The notes under the pieces are model-generated. The model worked only from the letters and a program-made list of their open reading frames with translations, was not told where the DNA came from and made no database searches. The position numbers and the translations under genes are program-made. DNA of 64,000 bases from Gammaproteobacteria bacterium (GTDB lineage Bacteria > Pseudomonadota > Gammaproteobacteria > Chromatiales > Chromatiaceae): contig JARRMY010000001.1 in assembly GCA_037385505.1 (NCBI GenBank), positions 7,025 through 71,024 of the forward strand. Reading direction: 5' to 3'. This document shows, in pieces, positions 3,556-63,481 of this stretch (positions are counted from its first letter, which is position 1; each line of letters begins with the position of its first letter).

Positions 3556-4325
3556 GCACTTTCCATATCGTTATTCCGGCGCGCCACGCTTCGAGCCGCC
3601 TGCCCGGCAAGCCGCTGCTCGACATTGGTGGCAAGCCCATGATCCTGCACGTGGTCGACCGGGCGCGCGAGTGCGGCGCGGCGACCATTACCGTCGCGAC
3701 CGATGACCGGCGCATCCACGACATCGTCGAGGCGGCGAATGTCGACGTGCTCATGACGTCTCCGGAGCACGCGAGCGGCACGGACCGACTCGCCGAGGTG
3801 ACCTCTGTGACAGGTTGGCCGGACGATGACATCGTCGTCAACCTGCAGGGAGACGAACCCCTGATGCCGCCCGTCATCGTCAGACAGGTCGCGGAGAACC
3901 TCGACGGCCACGCGCACGCCAGCATCGCCACCCTCTGCACGCCCGTCACGCGTTACGAGGAGATGATCAACCCCAATGCCGTCAAGGTCGTCATGGATGC
4001 CGACGGCTACGCGCTCTACTTCAGCCGGGCGCCGATTCCCTGGTACCGCGACGGGTTCGGCAAGGAGGAGCAGTGGATGCCGAGCATGACCGGCTGTTAC
4101 CGCCACCTGGGCCTCTACGCCTACAGGGCCGGTTTTCTGAAGCGCTACAGCGGCTGGCAGAGCGCCCCGCTCGAACAGTGCGAATCCCTCGAACAGCTGC
4201 GCGCGCTCTGGCACGGCGAGAAGATCCATGTCGCGATTGCCGAAGAGGTCCCGCCGCCCGGAGTCGACACGATGGATGACCTGCAGCATGTCAGGGAGAT
4301 CCTGGGAGGCGGGGATGGCGCATGA
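3552..4325 (+). CDS. kdsB: 3-deoxy-manno-octulosonate cytidylyltransferase (CMP-KDO synthetase)
   Basis: 257-aa ORF with the N-terminal [17 protein letters not shown] motif, in the lpxK-ycaR-kdsB context. Confidence 0.9.
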
Positions 4326-4782
4326 GATCGAGCGCAAGTTTCTCGTCACGGGCGATGCCTGGCGGTCGCTGGCCGACGAGGCGATCCGCATGCGCCAGGG
4401 CTATCTCTCGGAGGACTATGACCGCTCGATCCGCGTGCGCACCGAGAACGACAGGGCCTTCATCAATATCAAGAGTTCGGTCGACGGCATCCACCGCCTC
4501 GAGTACGAGTACGAGATCCCGCTGACCGACGCCGAGGAGATTCTCGATCGCGTCGCGTTGCGGCCGCTGATCGAGAAGACGCGCCATCTCGTTCACCTCG
4601 CCGGGGTCGAGTGGGAGATCGATGTCTTCGAGGGCGACAACGAGGGGCTCGTCGTCGCGGAAGTCGAGTTGCCCTCCGCGGACACGCCTGTCGCGCTGCC
4701 GGAGTGGGTCGGCAAGGAGGTCTCGCACGACCTGCGCTACTACAACGTCTCGCTGCAGAAGCATCCCTACCGCTCGTGGTGA
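4315..4782 (+). CDS. CYTH-domain protein (triphosphate tunnel metalloenzyme / class IV adenylate cyclase-like)
   Basis: The internal ATG at 4315 gives [11 protein letters not shown]..., with the EXEXK motif at the N-terminus. Overlaps the kdsB stop (4323-4325). Confidence 0.75.
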
Positions 4783-6260
4783 GGCGCCTTTTCCTGCTGC
4801 TCGTCTGCCTGGCGACGACGCTGGCCGGCTGCAGCGAACAGCCGCGCGAGGGTATCCGCTTCGGCGTGCAGCAGCTGCCGCTGAATTTCGACCCGCGGCA
4901 GGCGACCGACGCCGCCTCCGAGCGCGTCAACCATCTGCTCTACCGGGGACTGGTGCGTTTCGACGAGACGCGCCTCCCGCAACCCGATCTCGCGACCTGG
5001 CAACGGCCGGAGCCACGGCGCTATCGCTTCACCCTCGAGGCTGACAGCCGTTTCGACGACGGATCCGCCGTCACCGTGCGGGATGTGCTGGCGACCTACG
5101 ACGCCATTCTCGATCCTGAGAACAACTCGCCGCATCGCTCGACGCTCTCCATCATCGAGGAGATGCGCCCGGTCGACGGGAGCACGATCGACTTCCTGCT
5201 CGCGCGCGCCGACCCCTACTTTCCGTCCTATCTCGTCACCGGCATCCTGCCCGCGGAACGCATCGCGAACGGCCACGATTTCAGCAGCAAGCCGATCGGC
5301 AGCGGTCCGTTCCGGCTCAAGGAGCGCGATGCCGGGCGGTTGCTGCTCGAGCGCAAGTCCGACGGCGAAATCCTGAGCCTGCTGCTCGTCAAGGAGCCCA
5401 GCGTGCGCGTCCTGAAACTGCTGCGCGGCGAGATCGACCTGCTGCAGGGCGACCTGCCGCCCTCGCTGGTCGATTACCTCTCCGCGCAGGAGGGCGTGCG
5501 GGTACGCACGGCGCATGGCAGCAACTACACCTACCTGGGGTTCAATCTCGAGGATCCGGTGACGGGCGATGTGCGCATCCGCCGGGCCATCGCGCACGCC
5601 ATCGACCGCGAAGCCATTATCAGGCATGTTTTCAAGGGGCGCGCGCGCAAGGCCGCGGGACTCTTTCCGCCCGAGCATGCGCTCGGCATCGCGGACGAGA
5701 CAGCCATTCGCTTCGATCCGCAGCAGGCAATGGCGTTGCTGCGCGAGGCGGGCTACGGCCCGTCGCGTCCGCTCGAACTGACCTGGAAGACTTCCAGCGA
5801 CCCGTTCCGCCTGCGGCTTGCGACCATCATGCAACAGCAGCTTGCCGATGCGGGCATTCGCGTGACGATCAAGAGCCATGACTTCGGCACCTTCTTCGGC
5901 GATATCAAGTCCGGCAATTTCCAGCTCTACAGCCTCACCTGGGTCGGCCTGAAGACGCCGGACAGTTTCCGCTACATCTTCCACAGCGGCTCGATTCCAC
6001 CCAATGGCGCGAACCGCGGGCGCTATCGTTCATCGCCTGTCGACAGGCTGATAGAATCGGCCGAAAAGGAGGTCGATATCGATGCCCAGGTTCCCTTTTA
6101 CCAACGGCTGCAACGGCAACTCTTGCAGGACCTGCCCTATATCCCGCTCTGGTACGAGGACCAGATGGCCGCCTACAGGCCAGGGGCCGTCAGTGATTAC
6201 GTTCCGCGCCAGGACGGCAACTACGACGGTCTCACCGGGCTGGCGCGTGTCGGACGATGA
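4779..6260 (+). CDS. ABC transporter substrate-binding protein, family 5 (peptide/nickel type), lipoprotein
   Basis: GTG at 4776/4779 overlaps the CYTH stop. Lipoprotein-like signal [17 protein letters not shown]. Length and sequence resemble DppA/OppA-type binding proteins. The upstream part of the 4611 ORF overlaps the CYTH gene and is discounted. Confidence 0.8.
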   Translation: MRRLFLLLVCLATTLAGCSEQPREGIRFGVQQLPLNFDPRQATDAASERVNHLLYRGLVRFDETRLPQPDLATWQRPEPRRYRFTLEADSRFDDGSAVTVRDVLATYDAILDPENNSPHRSTLSIIEEMRPVDGSTIDFLLARADPYFPSYLVTGILPAERIANGHDFSSKPIGSGPFRLKERDAGRLLLERKSDGEILSLLLVKEPSVRVLKLLRGEIDLLQGDLPPSLVDYLSAQEGVRVRTAHGSNYTYLGFNLEDPVTGDVRIRRAIAHAIDREAIIRHVFKGRARKAAGLFPPEHALGIADETAIRFDPQQAMALLREAGYGPSRPLELTWKTSSDPFRLRLATIMQQQLADAGIRVTIKSHDFGTFFGDIKSGNFQLYSLTWVGLKTPDSFRYIFHSGSIPPNGANRGRYRSSPVDRLIESAEKEVDIDAQVPFYQRLQRQLLQDLPYIPLWYEDQMAAYRPGAVSDYVPRQDGNYDGLTGLARVGR

Positions 6261-55968: not shown

Positions 55969-57237
<1,269 letters not shown>

Positions 57238-57349
57238 CTTTCCGTTTCCGTCCTGAATTCAGGTAGCGAAATATTGTAACTGAAGCATGCAAAAAATCAG
57301 GATTTCATTGTAGTATCACTGTCATGACTCGCGCTGGTGAGATTTTTTT

Positions 57350-57835
57350 ATGAATGGATACCTGATTGCCCTGCTTTTGCTGTTATCGATGCCGGTCTCG
57401 GCAAGCATGCAGCCAGAAAATGATTTATTATTGAATGACTTGGAAAACAGACTTCATAAACTAAGTGAATACCGTGGCAAGTGGGTCGTGGTGAACTACT
57501 GGGCCACGTGGTGTTCGCCATGCCGTGATGAAATACCGGACCTCGTCGATTTTCATGAAAAACACAAGGCGGACAAGGCCGTGGTGCTCGGCGTCAACCA
57601 CGAGTACGCCACGCTTGGTGAGCTCAGGAAATTCAAGAGAGAATACCAGATCACCTATCCGCTGCTGAGGTCGTCACCCGTCAATCCAGGCATCGTCGGT
57701 GTCATCCAGGGATTGCCCACAACCTTCATTGTCACCCCCGATGGTGCCGTTGTTGCCTATGAGAGCGGCCCGGTCACAGCAGACATGATCGAGGCCTACA
57801 TCGAAACCTTCGAGAACGATCAGGAGCAAAAATGA
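57350..57835 (+). CDS. Periplasmic TlpA/ResA-like thiol:disulfide oxidoreductase
   Basis: 161 aa with a signal peptide and the WATWCSPC active site. Confidence 0.8.
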   Translation: MNGYLIALLLLLSMPVSASMQPENDLLLNDLENRLHKLSEYRGKWVVVNYWATWCSPCRDEIPDLVDFHEKHKADKAVVLGVNHEYATLGELRKFKREYQITYPLLRSSPVNPGIVGVIQGLPTTFIVTPDGAVVAYESGPVTADMIEAYIETFENDQEQK

Positions 57836-58377
57836 CCCATCGAGTTCTGTTGCCGGCTTTTTTCCTGCTCTTTGGAGCTCTCGCGCAGGCAGTCGAGTTG
57901 CGCGATCCCGGCTCCTACTTCTTCAGCGAGACATTCGGTGACATGACCGAAGAGATCGACAATGCAATCGACGAGGATAAAAAAGCCATTCTCATCATGT
58001 TCGAGATGGACGAATGTCCCTATTGCCATCGCATGAAATCGACTGTCCTGAATCGCAAGGATGTCCAGGAATTCTTCAGGGAGCATTTCCTGATCCTGAG
58101 CATGGACGTCGAAGGCGACCAGGAGATGACCGACTTCAACGGCGAGACGACGGTCGAGAAGGATTTCGCCCTGAAACAGTTCCGCGTCCGCGCAACCCCC
58201 GTCTTCCAGTTCATCGACCTCGAGGGCCAGCCGATCAAGCGTGCGCGCTTCACGGGTGCGACCGGCAGTGCCGAGGAATTCATGCTGCTTGGGCAATATG
58301 TCATCGACAAGGAGTACGAAAAGATGTCATTCACCAGGTACAAGCGGGAGCGGCTCAAGGACGAGAACAACAGCTGA
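57832..58377 (+). CDS. Periplasmic thioredoxin-fold protein (CPYC)
   Basis: 181 aa with a signal peptide and FEMDECPYCHRMK. ATGA overlap with the upstream gene. Confidence 0.65.
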   Translation: MTHRVLLPAFFLLFGALAQAVELRDPGSYFFSETFGDMTEEIDNAIDEDKKAILIMFEMDECPYCHRMKSTVLNRKDVQEFFREHFLILSMDVEGDQEMTDFNGETTVEKDFALKQFRVRATPVFQFIDLEGQPIKRARFTGATGSAEEFMLLGQYVIDKEYEKMSFTRYKRERLKDENNS

Positions 58378-59345
58378 TGCTGCGCCCTTATCGCTCCCTG
58401 GCGCTGGTCGTGCTGGCATTTCTCTGGCTGACAGAGACGCTACGGGCAGAGCCGCTTCCGAAATATCTCACGCTCGAAACGGCGCTTTCCTTCGTCGACG
58501 AGCAGCATCCCGGAGTCAGGCTTTCAGGCAAGGAGCAACTCGCACGCAGGCTGCGCGCCTGTCTCGAACCCGCGAGTGCGCTGATCAATACCCCTTTGCC
58601 TGACTCGCAATGCGGCTACTGGCACTTTCTCTCCGCCAGGCAGCAACAGCAGTTGCTCGTCATGCGGCGTTTCTTCGACGTTGCCCTGGCCGACAAGGCA
58701 GCCGCGCGAGACAACGAGGCCATGGCGATCGGATTCATCGACTTCGACCGGGCAAGCCGGCGCATGGAACTCGGGCAGGTCTCTGAAATCGAGGTCGCGG
58801 AACTCGATACCCTCTACCAGGAAGTCCGCAGTCGTACGCTCGCGAGCCAGGCGCTTCAGCGCAGCGCACGCTCGCTGCTGGCGATCGCCATGAACCGGCC
58901 GAAATCCTTTGTCGAGGAAGTGAGGATCCCGGATCTGAAAAAATTCATGGAGTGGAAAAAACCGGCTGACGAACAGAAACTCCACGAGACCATCGCGCAA
59001 AACAACCCTGTGCTCGCGAATATTGCGGAACTGGCTGACGAGGCGATGGGCCAGCTGGCTTCGCAGTATCTGCGTCACGCCGCGCTCGAGCTGCTGCTGG
59101 CGATCGACATCCACCAGGCGCATCGCCAGCAGGCGGATGTTCACATGCATTACCGCGACCTCTATCTCGACAGGAGCCGCACGCTCTACGAATTCGAGGT
59201 CAAGGCCGATCTCGGCGACGCCATGACGGCCCAGACGGCGTCACGTGTCGAGAAGATGGAGGCCGACTTCGATCTCGTGATGGCGATTGCAACCCTGCAG
59301 ATGCTGCAGGGGAAAACACTGGATGAACTCTTCGATGAAAACTAG
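58377..59345 (+). CDS. Short TolC/outer-membrane-efflux-protein-like protein
   Basis: The ATG at 58377 (TGATG overlap) gives a signal peptide followed by LTLETALSFVDEQHPGV. Two OEP-like helical repeats, but only 322 aa. Confidence 0.5.
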   Translation: MLRPYRSLALVVLAFLWLTETLRAEPLPKYLTLETALSFVDEQHPGVRLSGKEQLARRLRACLEPASALINTPLPDSQCGYWHFLSARQQQQLLVMRRFFDVALADKAAARDNEAMAIGFIDFDRASRRMELGQVSEIEVAELDTLYQEVRSRTLASQALQRSARSLLAIAMNRPKSFVEEVRIPDLKKFMEWKKPADEQKLHETIAQNNPVLANIAELADEAMGQLASQYLRHAALELLLAIDIHQAHRQQADVHMHYRDLYLDRSRTLYEFEVKADLGDAMTAQTASRVEKMEADFDLVMAIATLQMLQGKTLDELFDEN

Positions 59346-60102
59346 ATCGCTTTTCCTGCTGATTCTGCTGCTTTTCCACCTGCCGGCATATGCCGAAGAA
59401 CTGCGCGCCAGGCTCGAGTGGGCGCACACCGTCGATCTGCGTGCGTTCGAGAGCGGCGTCGTGCAGCAGGTCAACGTCCTCGAGGGACAGAGTGTCAGCA
59501 AGGGCGATGTGCTGATCAGTCTCGATCCGCGCGACTTCGACCTGACGATCCAGAGCGCCAGGGCCAAGCTGAAGCAGGCTGAAGCGGTTCTCGACAAGGC
59601 AGCGCGCGAGCTGGAGTGGGAGACAGAGCTTTACGACCAGGGCCTCATCTCCAGCAACGAGCTGCGGGACCACACCATTGCAAATCTCGACGCCGAGGCA
59701 CGCGTCGAGGAGGCGAAGGCGGCGCTCGCCACTGCCGAGCTTGCCAGGGAGCGAGCGGTCATCAAGGCTCCGTTCGACGGTGTTGTCACCGCTATCCGCT
59801 CCTGGCAAGGGCAGGTGGTTCTCAAGACGCTGCAGCAAGATCCATTGATCGAGATGGCGGAGGGTGGCCGCATGGTTGCCAGAACGCGGGTTTCAGCGAG
59901 CAGTATCGGCAAGTACGAGTCCCGGCAGCCCGCCCGGGTTCTGATTGGCGACCGCTGGCGGGACGGCTATATCTATCGCATCGGCACCATTTCCGAGGGT
60001 GTGCTGGAGCAGGGTGTCGCCTATGCAGTCGATATCATGTTCAGTCTCGAGAACGGCGAAACCATGCGCCCGGGCCACTTCTGCACGGTCAAGATCCTGT
60101 GA
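59335..60102 (+). CDS. Short HlyD/MFP-like periplasmic adaptor protein
   Basis: The ATG at 59335 gives a signal peptide. Lipoyl-like half VQQVNVLEGQSVSKGDVLISLD, a coiled-coil hairpin, then IKAPFDGVVTAI. Confidence 0.65.
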   Translation: MKTRSLFLLILLLFHLPAYAEELRARLEWAHTVDLRAFESGVVQQVNVLEGQSVSKGDVLISLDPRDFDLTIQSARAKLKQAEAVLDKAARELEWETELYDQGLISSNELRDHTIANLDAEARVEEAKAALATAELARERAVIKAPFDGVVTAIRSWQGQVVLKTLQQDPLIEMAEGGRMVARTRVSASSIGKYESRQPARVLIGDRWRDGYIYRIGTISEGVLEQGVAYAVDIMFSLENGETMRPGHFCTVKIL

Positions 60103-60368
60103 ACTGTATCCGTTGCCTGGTCGAGGGACGCGTCCAGGGCGTCTTCTTCCGTGCTGCGACCAAGCAGGAGGCGGACCGGCTGGGCATCGCCGGACATGCC
60201 GTCAATCTTCCCGATGGCAGGGTCGAGGTCGTTGCGCGCGGCACCGAGGATGCGCTCGGGCGACTCAGGCGTTTTTTGCACGAGGGGCCGCCACAGGCCT
60301 CAGTGACCGCCGTCAGTTGCGCTCCCTGGCATGCCGACAGCGTTCGGGACGGCTTCAGAACCGGTTGA
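60099..60368 (+). CDS. acyP: Acylphosphatase
   Basis: GTG start (GTGA overlap). VEGRVQGVFFRAATKQEA...NLPDGRVEVVARG. Confidence 0.85.
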   Translation: MNCIRCLVEGRVQGVFFRAATKQEADRLGIAGHAVNLPDGRVEVVARGTEDALGRLRRFLHEGPPQASVTAVSCAPWHADSVRDGFRTG

Positions 60369-61076
60369 ATGCAGCTTCCGGAACTGACAGACGGGCGCCT
60401 GTTGCGCCGTTACAAGCGTTTTTTTGCCGATGTGGAACTCGACGACGGGACGCAAGTCACGGCGCATTGTCCGAACACCGGCAGCATGCGTTCCTGCCTC
60501 GCCCCGGGTGCGCCGGTCCAGCTCAGCTTTCATGACAACCCGCGCAGAAAACTCCAGTGGACACTCGAGCGCATCGACATGGGCCACGGCTGGGTCGGCG
60601 TCAACACCCACATTGTCAACAGTGTCATCGCGGAGGCACTGCAGCAGGGAAGGATCCCGCAACTCGCGGGCCACAAACGGCTCAAACGCGAAGTCAGGAT
60701 CGAACTGCCCGGCCATGAACCCGCGCGGCTGGATATGGTGCTGGATGACGAATCGCCCGACAGTGTCTATATTGAAGTAAAAAATGTCACCTTGTTGGAT
60801 GATGGTTTTCTTCAATTTCCGGACGCTGTCTCGAAGCGCGCACTCAAGCACTTGAGATTGTTGACTGATCTGGCCGACAACGGACATCATGCCGTGATCC
60901 TGTTTGCCATCAACAGGCCGGAGGGGCGCTGTTTCCGGCCTGCGCGCGAGATCGATCCGGATTATGCCCAAGCACTGGAGACCGCCCTGGAACATGGCGT
61001 TTCCGTTATTCCGATCAGGCTCATCCATCGACAACGGGAGATTGTCACGGGAGCCCCAGTGGAATACACACGATGA
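60369..61076 (+). CDS. sfsA: Sugar fermentation stimulation protein A (DNA/RNA nuclease SfsA)
   Basis: 235 aa with LLRRYKRFFADVEL...AHCPNTGSM. Confidence 0.85.
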   Translation: MQLPELTDGRLLRRYKRFFADVELDDGTQVTAHCPNTGSMRSCLAPGAPVQLSFHDNPRRKLQWTLERIDMGHGWVGVNTHIVNSVIAEALQQGRIPQLAGHKRLKREVRIELPGHEPARLDMVLDDESPDSVYIEVKNVTLLDDGFLQFPDAVSKRALKHLRLLTDLADNGHHAVILFAINRPEGRCFRPAREIDPDYAQALETALEHGVSVIPIRLIHRQREIVTGAPVEYTR

Positions 61077-62008
61077 CTCTGACCGAGTTACGCTATATCG
61101 TCGCTGTTGCCAGGGAAAGACACTTCGGAAGGGCAGCGGAAGCCTGCTTTGTCAGCCAGCCGACACTGAGTGTTGCCGTGCGCAAGCTCGAGGAGGAACT
61201 CGCGGTTCCGATCTTCGAACGCGGCAAGGGGGAAGTGACCGTCACTCCGACTGGCGAGCAGATCATAGAGCAGGCACAACGCGTCCTGGAAGAAGCCAGC
61301 AAGATCAATCAGCTGTCAGAGCAGGGGAGAGACCAGCTCGAGGGTCCTCTGCGCATTGGCGCGATTCACACCGTCGGGCCCTACCTCTTCCCGGACCTGG
61401 TCCCGACGCTCGTGCAAATGGCTCCGAAAATGCAACTCGCGATCGAGGAGAATTTCACAGCCGTCCTCACGGAGAAGCTCAAGAATGGCGATCTCGATAT
61501 CATTCTCATCGCCGAGCCCTATAATGAACCTGGCATTCTGACGCTGCCGCTCTATACCGAACCCTTCGTCGCGCTCCTGCCGGCTGAACATGCACTGGCT
61601 TCGAAGGAGGCGCTCGTGACATCGGATCTTGCGTCGGAAACTGTGCTCCTGCTCGGCAGCGGACACTGTTTCCGTGACCAGGTGCTGAAGTTCTGCCCCG
61701 AGTGCCGCCGGCAGACCGGCCTGTTTGGCAACGCGATCCAGAACAGCATCGAGGGCGGCTCACTGGAGACAATCCGCTACATGGTCGCATCCGGACTGGG
61801 AATCACCATCCTGCCTTGCACGGCAACAGCCGTGGAGAGGTTTAGACAACGTCTCGTGACAGTGCTGCCGTTCGAAAACGAGGAGCCTTCAAGGACCATA
61901 GCGCTCGCGTGGCGCAAGAGTTTTCCTCGCCAGGAGGCCGTCGAACTCATCGCGGACGCCATCCGCGATAACCTGCCGGCCTGCGTACACGCCCGGGAAA
62001 CGGACTGA
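61073..62008 (+). CDS. oxyR: LysR-family hydrogen-peroxide-responsive regulator OxyR
   Basis: 311 aa with an N-terminal HTH LRYIVAVARERHFGRAAEACFVSQPTLS and the redox Cys pair in GSGHCFRDQVLKFC. Confidence 0.85.
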   Translation: MTLTELRYIVAVARERHFGRAAEACFVSQPTLSVAVRKLEEELAVPIFERGKGEVTVTPTGEQIIEQAQRVLEEASKINQLSEQGRDQLEGPLRIGAIHTVGPYLFPDLVPTLVQMAPKMQLAIEENFTAVLTEKLKNGDLDIILIAEPYNEPGILTLPLYTEPFVALLPAEHALASKEALVTSDLASETVLLLGSGHCFRDQVLKFCPECRRQTGLFGNAIQNSIEGGSLETIRYMVASGLGITILPCTATAVERFRQRLVTVLPFENEEPSRTIALAWRKSFPRQEAVELIADAIRDNLPACVHARETD

Positions 62009-62089
62009 TCCCCCTGATCCGGGGCTGAGCGGCGAGTACAGCAGTTGCCGGGTGTCTCAGCGCCTGGCGCCGCAAGCGTTACTCCGCTG

Positions 62090-63481
62090 CTAGAGGTTGT
62101 AACTCTCCCCGAATTCCGGCATTTCGACACTCGTGCTGTCCGGCAGCAGGGTGGCAAACCGCTCCATCGCCTCCTCGTCGCCATGGACAAGAATCGTTCG
62201 CTCGGGCGTTTTCATGCTGCGGAACCAGGCCAGCAACTCTGCCTGATCGGCATGCGCCGAAAAACCGCTGATGGTGTGGATACTGGCGCGCACCTGGATC
62301 TGTTCGCCGAAGATCTGAACCTCTTGCGCGCCATCGATGATGCGCCTCGCGAGCGTTCCTCTCGAGGCGTAACCGACGAAGATCACGCTCGACTCCTCGC
62401 GCCAGAGGTGCTGCTTGAGGTGGTGACGAACGCGGCCTCCGGTACACATGCCCGAACCGGCCAGGATCACGGCCCCGCCACGCAGCCTGTTGAGCGCAAT
62501 CGATTCTGCCGTCTCGCGGGTGAAATGCAATCCAGGCAGGTGGAAGGGATCTCGCCCCTCGTGAAACAGGGCCGCAACCTCCGGCTCGTAGCACTCCGGG
62601 TGACGCTCGAAGATCTCGGTCGCCGAGATTGCCATCGGGGAATCGAGAAATACCTGCAGCGACACCGGCAAGCGTTTCAGCTCTACGCCCTCGCGCAGGT
62701 AATAGAGCAGTTCCTGCGCACGTTCCAGCGCGAATGTCGGGATGATCACGTTACCCCCGCGCTCCATGGTGTCATGGATCAACGTGTAGAGTTCGTCGAT
62801 CGTCGGCTTCAGTTCCTTGTGCAGCCGGTCGCCATACGTCGTCTCCATGACGACGACGTCGGCGTGTGCGGGCGTCACGGGGTCCCTCAGAAGCGCCCGA
62901 CCGGCGTTGCCGAGATCGCCCGAGAACAGCAGGGTTCGCTGCCTTCCATGCTCTGCCAGCTCGAGGTAGATGCTCGCAGAACCCAGAATATGGCCGGCGT
63001 CGTAAAAGGTGGCGCGTATGCCGGGCGCCAGCTGCAGGGGCGCGTTGTATTCGGCGGTGCGCCCGAAATGCTCCGTGCTGTTGAGGGCATCCAGCACCGT
63101 GTAGAGTGGCTCCGGCCTGGACCTGTGACCATGACGCGCGCGCCGGCGCGCATGATAGCTGGCTTCCTCCTCCTGCAGGTGAGCCGAATCGAGCATCACC
63201 AGCCGCATGAGTTCGCGCGACGCGGCCGTGGTGATGATCTCGCCGCGAAAGCCACGCTTGCTGAGCAGCGGAATGCGTCCGCAGTGATCCAGGTGCGCAT
63301 GGGTCAGCAGCAGAAAGTCGATCGACGCCGGGTCGAAGCCGAAGTCCTCGCTGTTTTCCTCGACCAGCTCACGGCTGCCCTGGTAGAGGCCGCAGTCGAC
63401 CAGGATGCGATGGCCTGCGCATTCGACCAGGTGGCAGGAACCCGTGACATTGCGGTCCGCGCCATGAAAGGAGATTTTCAT
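62090..63481 (-). CDS. MBL-fold beta-CASP hydrolase (RNA-metabolising metallo-beta-lactamase)
   Basis: The ATG at 63481 gives MKISFHGADRNVTGSCHLVE, with LLLTHAHLDHCGRIP. The upstream part of the 611-aa ORF is discounted. Confidence 0.8.
   Translation of the reverse strand: MKISFHGADRNVTGSCHLVECAGHRILVDCGLYQGSRELVEENSEDFGFDPASIDFLLLTHAHLDHCGRIPLLSKRGFRGEIITTAASRELMRLVMLDSAHLQEEEASYHARRRARHGHRSRPEPLYTVLDALNSTEHFGRTAEYNAPLQLAPGIRATFYDAGHILGSASIYLELAEHGRQRTLLFSGDLGNAGRALLRDPVTPAHADVVVMETTYGDRLHKELKPTIDELYTLIHDTMERGGNVIIPTFALERAQELLYYLREGVELKRLPVSLQVFLDSPMAISATEIFERHPECYEPEVAALFHEGRDPFHLPGLHFTRETAESIALNRLRGGAVILAGSGMCTGGRVRHHLKQHLWREESSVIFVGYASRGTLARRIIDGAQEVQIFGEQIQVRASIHTISGFSAHADQAELLAWFRSMKTPERTILVHGDEEAMERFATLLPDSTSVEMPEFGESYNL

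Follow-up and report, generated by a model that had tools for sequence, protein, structure and literature searches.

We analyzed a cluster of four genes (g1 - g4) in a 64,000-nucleotide stretch, hereafter the window, of contig JARRMY010000001.1 from a gammaproteobacterium of the family Chromatiaceae (assembly GCA_037385505.1). The third gene (g3) appears to encode a natural member of a TolC subfamily that has no outer-membrane beta-barrel, and the fourth (g4) a short adaptor dedicated to it; we give this structural and evolutionary reading, taken as a whole, a probability of roughly 60%. The genes lie on the forward strand between 57350 and 60102. The first, g1 (57350..57835; 161 aa), codes for a periplasmic thiol:disulfide reductase of the TlpA/ResA kind with a WCSPC motif (C55/C58) and a signal-like N-terminus; g2 (57832..58377; 181 aa) for a periplasmic Thioredoxin_2-type protein with a CPYC motif (C62/C65); g3 (58377..59345; 322 aa, signal-like N-terminus) for the putative barrel-less TolC relative, which carries Cys62 and Cys79; and g4 (59323 or 59335..60102; 259 or 255 aa) for the putative soluble periplasmic adaptor (membrane-fusion protein). 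The overlaps are 4 nt between g1 and g2 (ATGA), 1 nt between g2 and g3 (TGATG) and 11 or 23 nt between g3 and g4, depending on whether the ATG at 59335 or that at 59323 is used. Each of the four N-termini is basic, then hydrophobic and then ends in a small-x-small pattern, and beyond it no 19-mer reaches a Kyte-Doolittle (KD) value of 1.6; signal peptides, cleavage and solubility were judged by eye. Four signal-bearing genes with overlapping stops and starts and the WCSPC and CPYC motifs had been described at 57350-60102 in an initial annotation made from the letters alone, and all were found there, as were the strings quoted for the 322-aa protein and its Cys pair (RACLEP...DSQCGYW, that is, Cys62/Cys79).

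A homologue search with g3 recovered 246 proteins. The long ones (413-521 aa), matched by g3 with E-values of 1e-41 to 1e-35, carry PF02321 (OEP), and some are named TolC family in their source records; the short ones (approximately 293-377 aa) are without PF02321 or any other recorded Pfam domain. The g3 protein gave no Pfam match at E <= 0.1, OEP included, matched zero NCBIfam families, TolC included, and a search of the PDB sequences returned nothing at E <= 10. Against the curated TolC model TIGR01844, a long form reached 83 bits, compared to a cut-off of 225. An exhaustive phmmer search with g3 recovered 482 representative clusters at E <= 1e-3 and 70 at E <= 1e-30, and the canonical TolC of the same genome was not matched by g3 even at E <= 0.01. 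Because the clusters are so few and the genome's own TolC goes unmatched, sequence comparison indicates that the g3 family is a compact, small TolC subfamily set well apart from ordinary TolC.

The mature g3 protein has 298 residues, compared to 401-422 in its full-length relatives, a difference of about 105-120 aa. Long and short forms align across the entire helical part, and two blocks present in all long forms are absent from the short ones. We examined these blocks in the AlphaFold2 (AF2) model of the long form P0093 (429 aa; predicted local distance difference test score, pLDDT, 88.3), in which beta-strands occupy residues 66-75, 88-101, 275-286 and 295-302. The P0093 residues that have no counterpart in g3 are, depending on the alignment, approximately 50-67, 87/91-113/117 and 266-331, and all four strands lie in the missing parts. 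The AF2 model of g3 is all-alpha (pLDDT 91.3; predicted template modelling score, pTM, 0.87); its only strand-like elements are two 3-residue bridges in the equatorial region, and a low-confidence loop (67-77) sits between both Cys residues. Both models are monomers. The suggestion that the 322-aa protein is too short for a barrel thus holds for a genuine TolC relative with an all-alpha model.

The fold of the g3 model is that of TolC. The model superimposed on E. coli TolC (9tg4_A) with a Z-score of 21.4 and a root-mean-square deviation of 2.6 Å over 257 residues (VIA); the best 29 structural matches were all outer-membrane factors (Z 12.8-21.4), compared to Z 7.2 for the next, unrelated structure, and Foldseek likewise placed TolC at the top (E 5e-6). 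Two short motifs, L132-G133-S136 and D278-L279-G280, are invariant or nearly so in 71 long and short sequences, and in the g3 model they make up both helix-turn-helix turns, at its periplasmic end. It follows that the end which meets the adaptor is the conserved end and that the membrane end is dispensable. None of the conditions that would have refuted the initial annotation was found: g3 has OEP homology, it does not model as a complete TolC protomer, the four genes are syntenic in other genomes, and no cognate pump gene lies beside the relatives examined.

The short forms fall into two well-supported groups, one of 12 rows that includes the window's protein and one of 43 rows from Chromatiaceae. 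In trees of 81 and 101 rows, the support for placing all short forms on one side was 80 and then 0, and neither tree separated the three groups (two short, one long) into one or two barrel losses. The identical boundaries of the second deletion argue for a single loss, and the differing positions of the second Cys argue for two losses, or for a separate later repair. A protein atlas placed among the nearest clusters by features a 348-aa ‘TolC family’ cluster with OEP in 90% of its members and Deinococcota as the commonest phylum, so other unusually short TolC relatives may exist outside the g3 subfamily; the same query otherwise gave just unnamed clusters of similar length.

The g4 protein passes the NCBIfam model RND_mfp (TIGR01730) with 129.3 bits (cut-off 94.9). 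Residues 26-258 of its 259 match positions 16-244 of the 322 in the model, and since the match stops at 244 with the last residues of g4, the membrane-proximal domain is absent. Pfam matches were to HlyD_3, Biotin_lipoyl_2 and HlyD_D23, accounting for lipoyl, hairpin and beta-barrel domains only, and the closest relatives among PDB sequences were MexJ, MacA and AcrA. Homologues of g4 (n=79) have a median mature length of 235 aa and form a family of their own at approximately 250-263 aa, with ordinary adaptors first appearing at E >= 1e-12. We found no means of inner-membrane attachment in g4: there is no N-terminal Cys (its only Cys is residue 254) and no hydrophobic segment after the signal. 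Its most hydrophobic 19-residue window (KD 1.59) falls in the N-terminal signal-like segment, which probably is cleaved (AYA|EE). An adaptor with neither membrane-proximal domain nor anchor, as initially proposed, was therefore borne out by the early end of the model match and the missing hydrophobic anchor. The g4 protein also has peculiarities of its own clade. The hairpin residues W99 and Q106 are Arg in 68/79 and 73/79 of the homologues, respectively, and the lone C-terminal Cys (C254) is limited to the window's clade (9/11 rows); W99, Q106 and C254 may reflect co-adaptation with a barrel-less partner.

We evaluated the conservation of the arrangement by scanning one genome per species, which gave 271 relatives, of which 80 loci were kept. 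The ORFs in these loci were called as longest frames, so gene starts are approximate and the ORF lengths printed for them are upper bounds; family lengths were taken from the alignment instead. In 78 of the 80 loci the TolC gene has the adaptor gene next to it, downstream, and the remaining two break off with the contig. Eleven loci have the short form and the neighbours of the window: nine show g1-g2-g3-g4 and the other two begin at g3, cut at the contig end, in keeping with the neighbourhood conservation that the initial annotation asked about. Another 26 loci carry a long TolC in a g2-TolC-adaptor frame with g2 upstream in every case (26/26), under titles that include Thiodiazotropha, Sedimenticola, Thiohalobacter, Thioalkalivibrio and Ectothiorhodospiraceae. 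The other 43 are Chromatiaceae-type loci (Thiocapsa, Thiocystis, Halochromatium and Lamprocystis among the titles) with the short TolC and adaptor only. Recurring as it does in 9/11 close short-form and 26/26 long-form loci, the arrangement is more than chance. An acylphosphatase gene lies downstream of the adaptor gene in most of the 80 loci. Three loci (L007, L037 and L063) place the gammaproteobacterial-type cluster in metagenome-assembled genomes labelled Bathyarchaeota, Bdellovibrio bacteriovorus and Nitrospirota; these contigs are probably mis-binned, because they nest among gammaproteobacterial rows in the tree.

A broader sample gave a consistent picture. Of 400 genomes sampled from the window's class, 83 (about a fifth) hold the family at E <= 1e-10; most of the matches are long forms, recognisable by a break in the match at precisely the hairpins that the query lacks. 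In 20 of the 83 that were inspected, g2, a long TolC and the adaptor lie on one strand (20/20), with g2 adjacent to the TolC gene in 18 and approximately 2.4 kb away in the other two; 12 of the 20 have g1, and 14 have the acylphosphatase gene. A scan with a divergent g2 returned 60 named loci, Guyparkeria and Halothiobacillus among them, with the g2-TolC-adaptor order in 54; five of the rest are cut at a contig end, and one (L108) has no detected adaptor ORF. Throughout, g2 is the most conserved partner gene of the TolC-like gene.

Both g1 and g2 encode proteins of the thioredoxin fold. Pfam assigned g1 to AhpC-TSA (E 1.7e-20) and Redoxin (E 7.3e-13), and its closest relatives among PDB sequences were ResA (E 1.4e-18) and TlpA (E 6e-15); with the NCBIfam models, it stayed below the cut-offs of both ResA (89 bits, cut-off 170) and TlpA (67.6 bits, cut-off 230). 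The CxxC motif of g1 is retained in 31/31 aligned homologues. The g2 protein matched Thioredoxin_2 (E 1.4e-18; 67.6 bits, cut-off 27; residues 48-150) and Thioredoxin_7 (E 5e-10), and its best PDB relative was 4fyb, deposited as ‘DsbC’ (E 1e-7). Its 181 residues gave no match at E <= 0.1 to the dimerisation-domain family of DsbC/DsbG-type isomerases in Pfam; its CPYC we take to be the DsbG/ScsC motif. The 915 homologues of g2, 60-68% identical across many lineages, are named only ‘thioredoxin family protein’. SoxS was absent from the g2 matches among PDB sequences at E <= 0.01; for g1 and g2 together, the matches held no Sox-named model or PDB chain, and no curated model was reached.

The first alternative is that the operon joins two halves with no function in common: g1 and g2 would maintain periplasmic cysteines, for example of Sox carrier proteins or in cytochrome maturation, as SoxS and SoxW do in Alphaproteobacteria, and the TolC/adaptor pair would do something different, sharing no more than a conserved neighbourhood with them. 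A periplasmic reductive branch of sulfur oxidation formed by SoxV, SoxW and SoxS is on record in titles cited by PMC10451225. The separation of the two halves in Chromatiaceae lends weight to the idea. In 5/5 Chromatiaceae genomes, the g2 orthologue (52-63% identity) is encoded elsewhere with an acylphosphatase gene directly after it, and the TolC/adaptor pair has varied neighbours. Genes such as arsC, sfsA and an OxyR-like regulator also travel with the region, suggesting plain synteny. Even so, g2 is directly upstream of the TolC gene in 18 of the 20 inspected genomes and, in every one of them, no more than 3 kb from it and on its strand, and the g2-TolC order holds in 26/26 long-form loci and in 54 of the 60 loci found with g2, often with overlapping stops and starts. 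Gene order kept over such a phylogenetic span usually means co-function. In Chromatiaceae, where g2 and the acylphosphatase gene are adjacent, the TolC/adaptor pair has evidently moved out of a trx-[TolC-adaptor]-acylphosphatase frame. We therefore regard unrelated halves as unlikely, and it is the best of the rivals.

We analyzed the Cys residues of the mature part across 101 aligned family members. At least two are present in 55/55 short forms (one has four), compared to none in 44/46 long forms and one in the other two. Among the 12 rows of the window's group, the two occur together in the loop that stands in for the first beta-hairpin (C62 and C79 in g3); in the Chromatiaceae group (43 rows), one lies in the loop and the other in the last helix, at g3 position 299. 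Since no long form has the pair and its position is not the same in both short groups, it is probably a structural staple and not the target of the thioredoxins. That a disulfide forms in the short forms we infer from this pattern.

The initial annotation had linked the thioredoxins to this Cys pair, and a rival reading takes the link further: the TlpA-like and CPYC proteins would reduce or isomerise Cys62-Cys79 and so switch the conformation or assembly of g3, making it a redox-regulated scaffold. The loop Cys pair in 12/12 rows of the window's clade speaks for such a switch. Within the same clade, the thioredoxin genes lie directly upstream and overlap in 9/11 loci (the other two cut at the contig end), and the lone C-terminal Cys of the adaptor occurs in 9/11 rows. 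Outside it the link breaks down. The long forms keep both thioredoxin genes beside a TolC that in 44/46 cases has no Cys, and the Chromatiaceae pair is elsewhere in the protein with the g2 orthologue at another locus. The thioredoxins are thus older than the Cys pair and are also found where it is absent; because the Cys-free long forms adjoin the same thioredoxin genes, the g3 pair would not be their substrate. A redox switch fits the window's clade only and is doubtful, a shade more so than unrelated halves. The comparative Cys data thus leave operon synteny as the sole tie between this system and the ‘disulfide chemistry’ to which it had been coupled.

No ABC, RND or MFS transporter gene had been noticed beside the cluster, and the survey of neighbours agreed. 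Pfam and NCBIfam scans of the window's flanks of g1 - g4 revealed no transporter gene, and Pfam found no ABC, RND or MFS gene among 31 neighbour ORFs of six Chromatiaceae loci or 44 neighbour ORFs of ten long-form loci (16 loci together), a survey of neighbours in which unlinked partners were not sought. TolC genes are often unlinked from their pumps, as in E. coli, and on this ground the cluster could belong to a conventional tripartite efflux or secretion system whose inner-membrane pump is encoded at another locus, with g3 reaching the outer membrane in some other way. The curated RND adaptor model that g4 passes and the TolC tunnel fold of g3 are what such a system would contain. It is nevertheless very unlikely, given that g3 lacks all four barrel strands, a lipobox and any hydrophobic segment, that g4 lacks the membrane-proximal domain and an anchor of the EmrA/HlyD kind, and that the genome has a separate canonical TolC. 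The membrane-proximal domain is tied to recognition of RND and ABC transporters in the review PMC4446572. The ‘envelope-spanning’ structure considered initially is likewise unlikely: the part that would cross the outer membrane is gone, and neither g3 nor g4 is anchored to the inner membrane. The last alternative, that g3 is a truncated, non-functional TolC gene heading for loss, would account for some 110 missing residues including the membrane domain and for the missing Pfam OEP match, but it is highly improbable in view of an intact frame in 55 loci of two deep groups, in-frame deletions with the same boundaries, invariant turn motifs, a confident model, a Cys pair gained in every short form and an adaptor gene retained alongside.

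The genomes that carry the module point to sulfur oxidation. In the sample of 400 genomes, 149 have soxB and 122 have dsrA; soxB is present in 79/83 genomes with the family, compared to 70/317 without it, and dsrA in 61 of the 83. The window's genome has both dsrA and soxB, the latter on another contig (C6). The sampled genomes are related and not independent, and we therefore give the Fisher p-value for these counts no weight; the counts themselves plainly mark the module as characteristic of Sox-type sulfur oxidisers.

In pursuance of the reading of g3 as a barrel-less TolC with a dedicated adaptor, we propose the following course of events. The ancestral module would have been (TlpA-like)-Trx(CPYC)-TolC-adaptor-(acylphosphatase), widespread in soxB-carrying sulfur-oxidising Gammaproteobacteria, with a complete TolC (four strands per protomer), an adaptor without membrane-proximal domain or anchor, and no adjacent pump gene. 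In those long-form ancestors, the adaptor would hang from the outer-membrane TolC, and its lack of anchor and membrane-proximal domain suggests a duct fed from the periplasm and not from a pump. In the window's lineage and in Chromatiaceae, both TolC beta-hairpins would have been deleted and a Cys pair would have appeared near the deleted end. The g3 protein would then be exported and released into the periplasm as a soluble alpha-tunnel, probably trimeric and with a disulfide made by DsbA as its staple, and would still dock tip to tip with a ring of soluble g4. Such a g3-g4 assembly may serve as a periplasmic holding or conduit scaffold; it would not be an efflux pump, because it crosses neither membrane and has no energy source. 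The g1 and g2 proteins would act as a reductive branch supplied by DsbD, in the same operon and probably in the same process, one tied to Sox-type periplasmic sulfur chemistry; they would not act on the g3 Cys pair.

A more speculative extension, to which we attach little likelihood, is that the module is an energy-independent duct for handling sulfur and that loss of the barrel turns it into a periplasmic sulfur cage. In the long form, the CPYC and TlpA-like proteins might load Sox-made sulfane sulfur or polysulfide into the adaptor-TolC funnel, or release it there, and the free-hanging funnel might vent the sulfur through the outer membrane. In the short form, a closed, soluble TolC(3)-adaptor(6) cage might instead retain or nucleate sulfur in the periplasm, the compartment in which Chromatiaceae store it. 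If true, this would be the first case of efflux-pump parts making up a free assembly in the periplasm.

Several observations weigh against the proposal that g3 and g4 form a barrel-less TolC-adaptor system of sulfur oxidisers. The AF2 model of g3 is a monomer, and long forms make up half of the alignment behind it; W99 and Q106 in the g4 hairpin could mean altered docking. The Chromatiaceae TolC/adaptor pair lies apart from the thioredoxin gene, which stays beside the acylphosphatase gene, and the joining of the redox genes and the TolC/adaptor pair in one operon could therefore be a matter of history and not of function. An unlinked pump gene would have gone unseen, the pump search having covered neighbouring genes. 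The genomes behind the soxB association are related, so that it does not amount to independent evidence of mechanism, and soxB was not adjacent to the module in genomes for which both positions were given.

The genes around the cluster are closely packed. The acylphosphatase gene (60099..60368, forward strand; Pfam Acylphosphatase, E 4.5e-21) has a GTG start within the g4 stop and no signal peptide; sfsA (60369..61076, forward; TIGR00230, 209 bits, above cut-off) begins at the base after the acylphosphatase stop; and the start of an OxyR-like LysR regulator gene (61073..62008, forward; 246.8 bits with the OxyR model, below its cut-off of 329) falls within the sfsA stop. Given these overlapping and abutting stops and starts, the seven genes from 57350 to 62008 may be a single transcription unit. 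Scanning 56800-62300 for promoters and terminators gave nine weak terminator-like sites and, within sfsA, two weak promoter-like ones, none of them usable. The order acylphosphatase-sfsA-OxyR-like LysR was also found in loci L002 and L004. The regulator (61073-62008) contains a Cys...Cys stretch (GHCFRDQVLKFCPEC) that presumably lies at the place of the OxyR redox pair. It may be added that, on its downstream side, this module of periplasmic proteins has no neighbour more faithful than the cytoplasmic acylphosphatase. Upstream, on the minus strand, are arsC, a wrbA-like gene, a small membrane-protein ORF and an hda-like gene; arsC was identified by family scan and the other three were named by eye.

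The related loci contain further neighbours, redox-related ones among them. A DsbD gene directly follows the adaptor gene in two Ectothiorhodospiraceae-type loci, L060 (2842-5082) and L080 (8770-11354), and in L080 it is preceded by cutA; the window's genome has one DsbD, on a different contig. In L087, a 708-aa ORF (3827-5953) matched by g1 lies directly before g2 and may be a DsbD-like or fused protein. The CPYC motif, the cutA-dsbD pair of L080 and arsC raised the possibility of a copper-related (Cus- or Scs-like) system, which we set aside because the adaptor has no conserved Met/His/Cys cluster. In L063, the gene before g2 encodes a YeeE/YedE-type ‘Sulphur transport’ protein. A multi-pass membrane protein of the BrkB/YihY family is encoded upstream of g1 in four Sedimenticolaceae-type loci (L078:4412-5683, L079:4132-5469, L064:2628-3911 and L072:976-2184), adjacent to it in two, and is the sole recurring inner-membrane neighbour that we saw. 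In loci of Thiocystis, Thiocapsa and Lamprocystis, the gene for a META-domain protein (L034:5996-6817, L041:5575-6846 and L054:5588-6487) lies immediately upstream of the short TolC/adaptor pair and is transcribed divergently from it.

Compared to known systems, g1 and g2 resemble SoxV-SoxW-SoxS, TlpA/ResA/CcmG and DsbG/ScsC as periplasmic CxxC proteins of the thioredoxin fold, presumably fed by a membrane reductase of the DsbD/CcdA type, and differ from SoxS and SoxW in that their genes lie outside any sox cluster. The g4 adaptor shares its lipoyl, alpha-hairpin and beta-barrel domains with AcrA, MacA and MexJ; unlike them, it ends after the beta-barrel domain and has no lipid or transmembrane anchor. 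Adaptors of the EmrA/HlyD type have an N-terminal helix that fixes them in the inner membrane, and MFS or ABC pumps as partners. Compared to these, g4 has only a cleavable-looking signal and no pump gene alongside, and it is like them in having no membrane-proximal domain, an absence that the abstract of PMC4158417 states for EmrA.

We attempted to find precedents for g3 in the open-access literature, and the search returned no account of a barrel-less TolC homologue or of a thioredoxin-TolC-adaptor cluster; nor did any curated family that we met cover the cluster. In the literature searched, the word ‘barrel-less’ occurred with TolC only in a paper on MlaD (PMC10665443), and two further candidates (PMC7787665 and PMC6504805) were rejected because TolC is mentioned there in connection with other genes.

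The g3 protein is like TolC, OprM and CusC (PF02321) in its alpha-helical tunnel and equatorial region, its two-repeat layout, its Gly-containing hairpin turns and the adaptor gene that comes next; it is unlike them in having no barrel strands, in failing the OEP and TolC models, in its Cys pair and in the absence of a pump gene nearby. TolC-family proteins are defined as outer-membrane exit ducts, and a conserved barrel-less TolC with its adaptor would mean that the helical tunnel and the docking end can function in the periplasm themselves. The nearest structural counterparts are mutants of CusC (PDB 4k7k and 4k34, named from the entry titles), in which the barrel is unformed and the helical part is folded, and which match the g3 model at Z 15.7. 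Those mutants were engineered and keep the strand sequence, whereas g3 has lost the sequence itself and the state is conserved in nature. The pump-less thioredoxin-TolC-adaptor cluster, found almost only in soxB carriers, may matter more than the loss of the barrel: it is a candidate for a periplasmic step in sulfur oxidation, such as sulfur release, sulfur retention or cysteine repair, and to efflux research it offers a natural experiment on what TolC and its adaptors would do without a pump.

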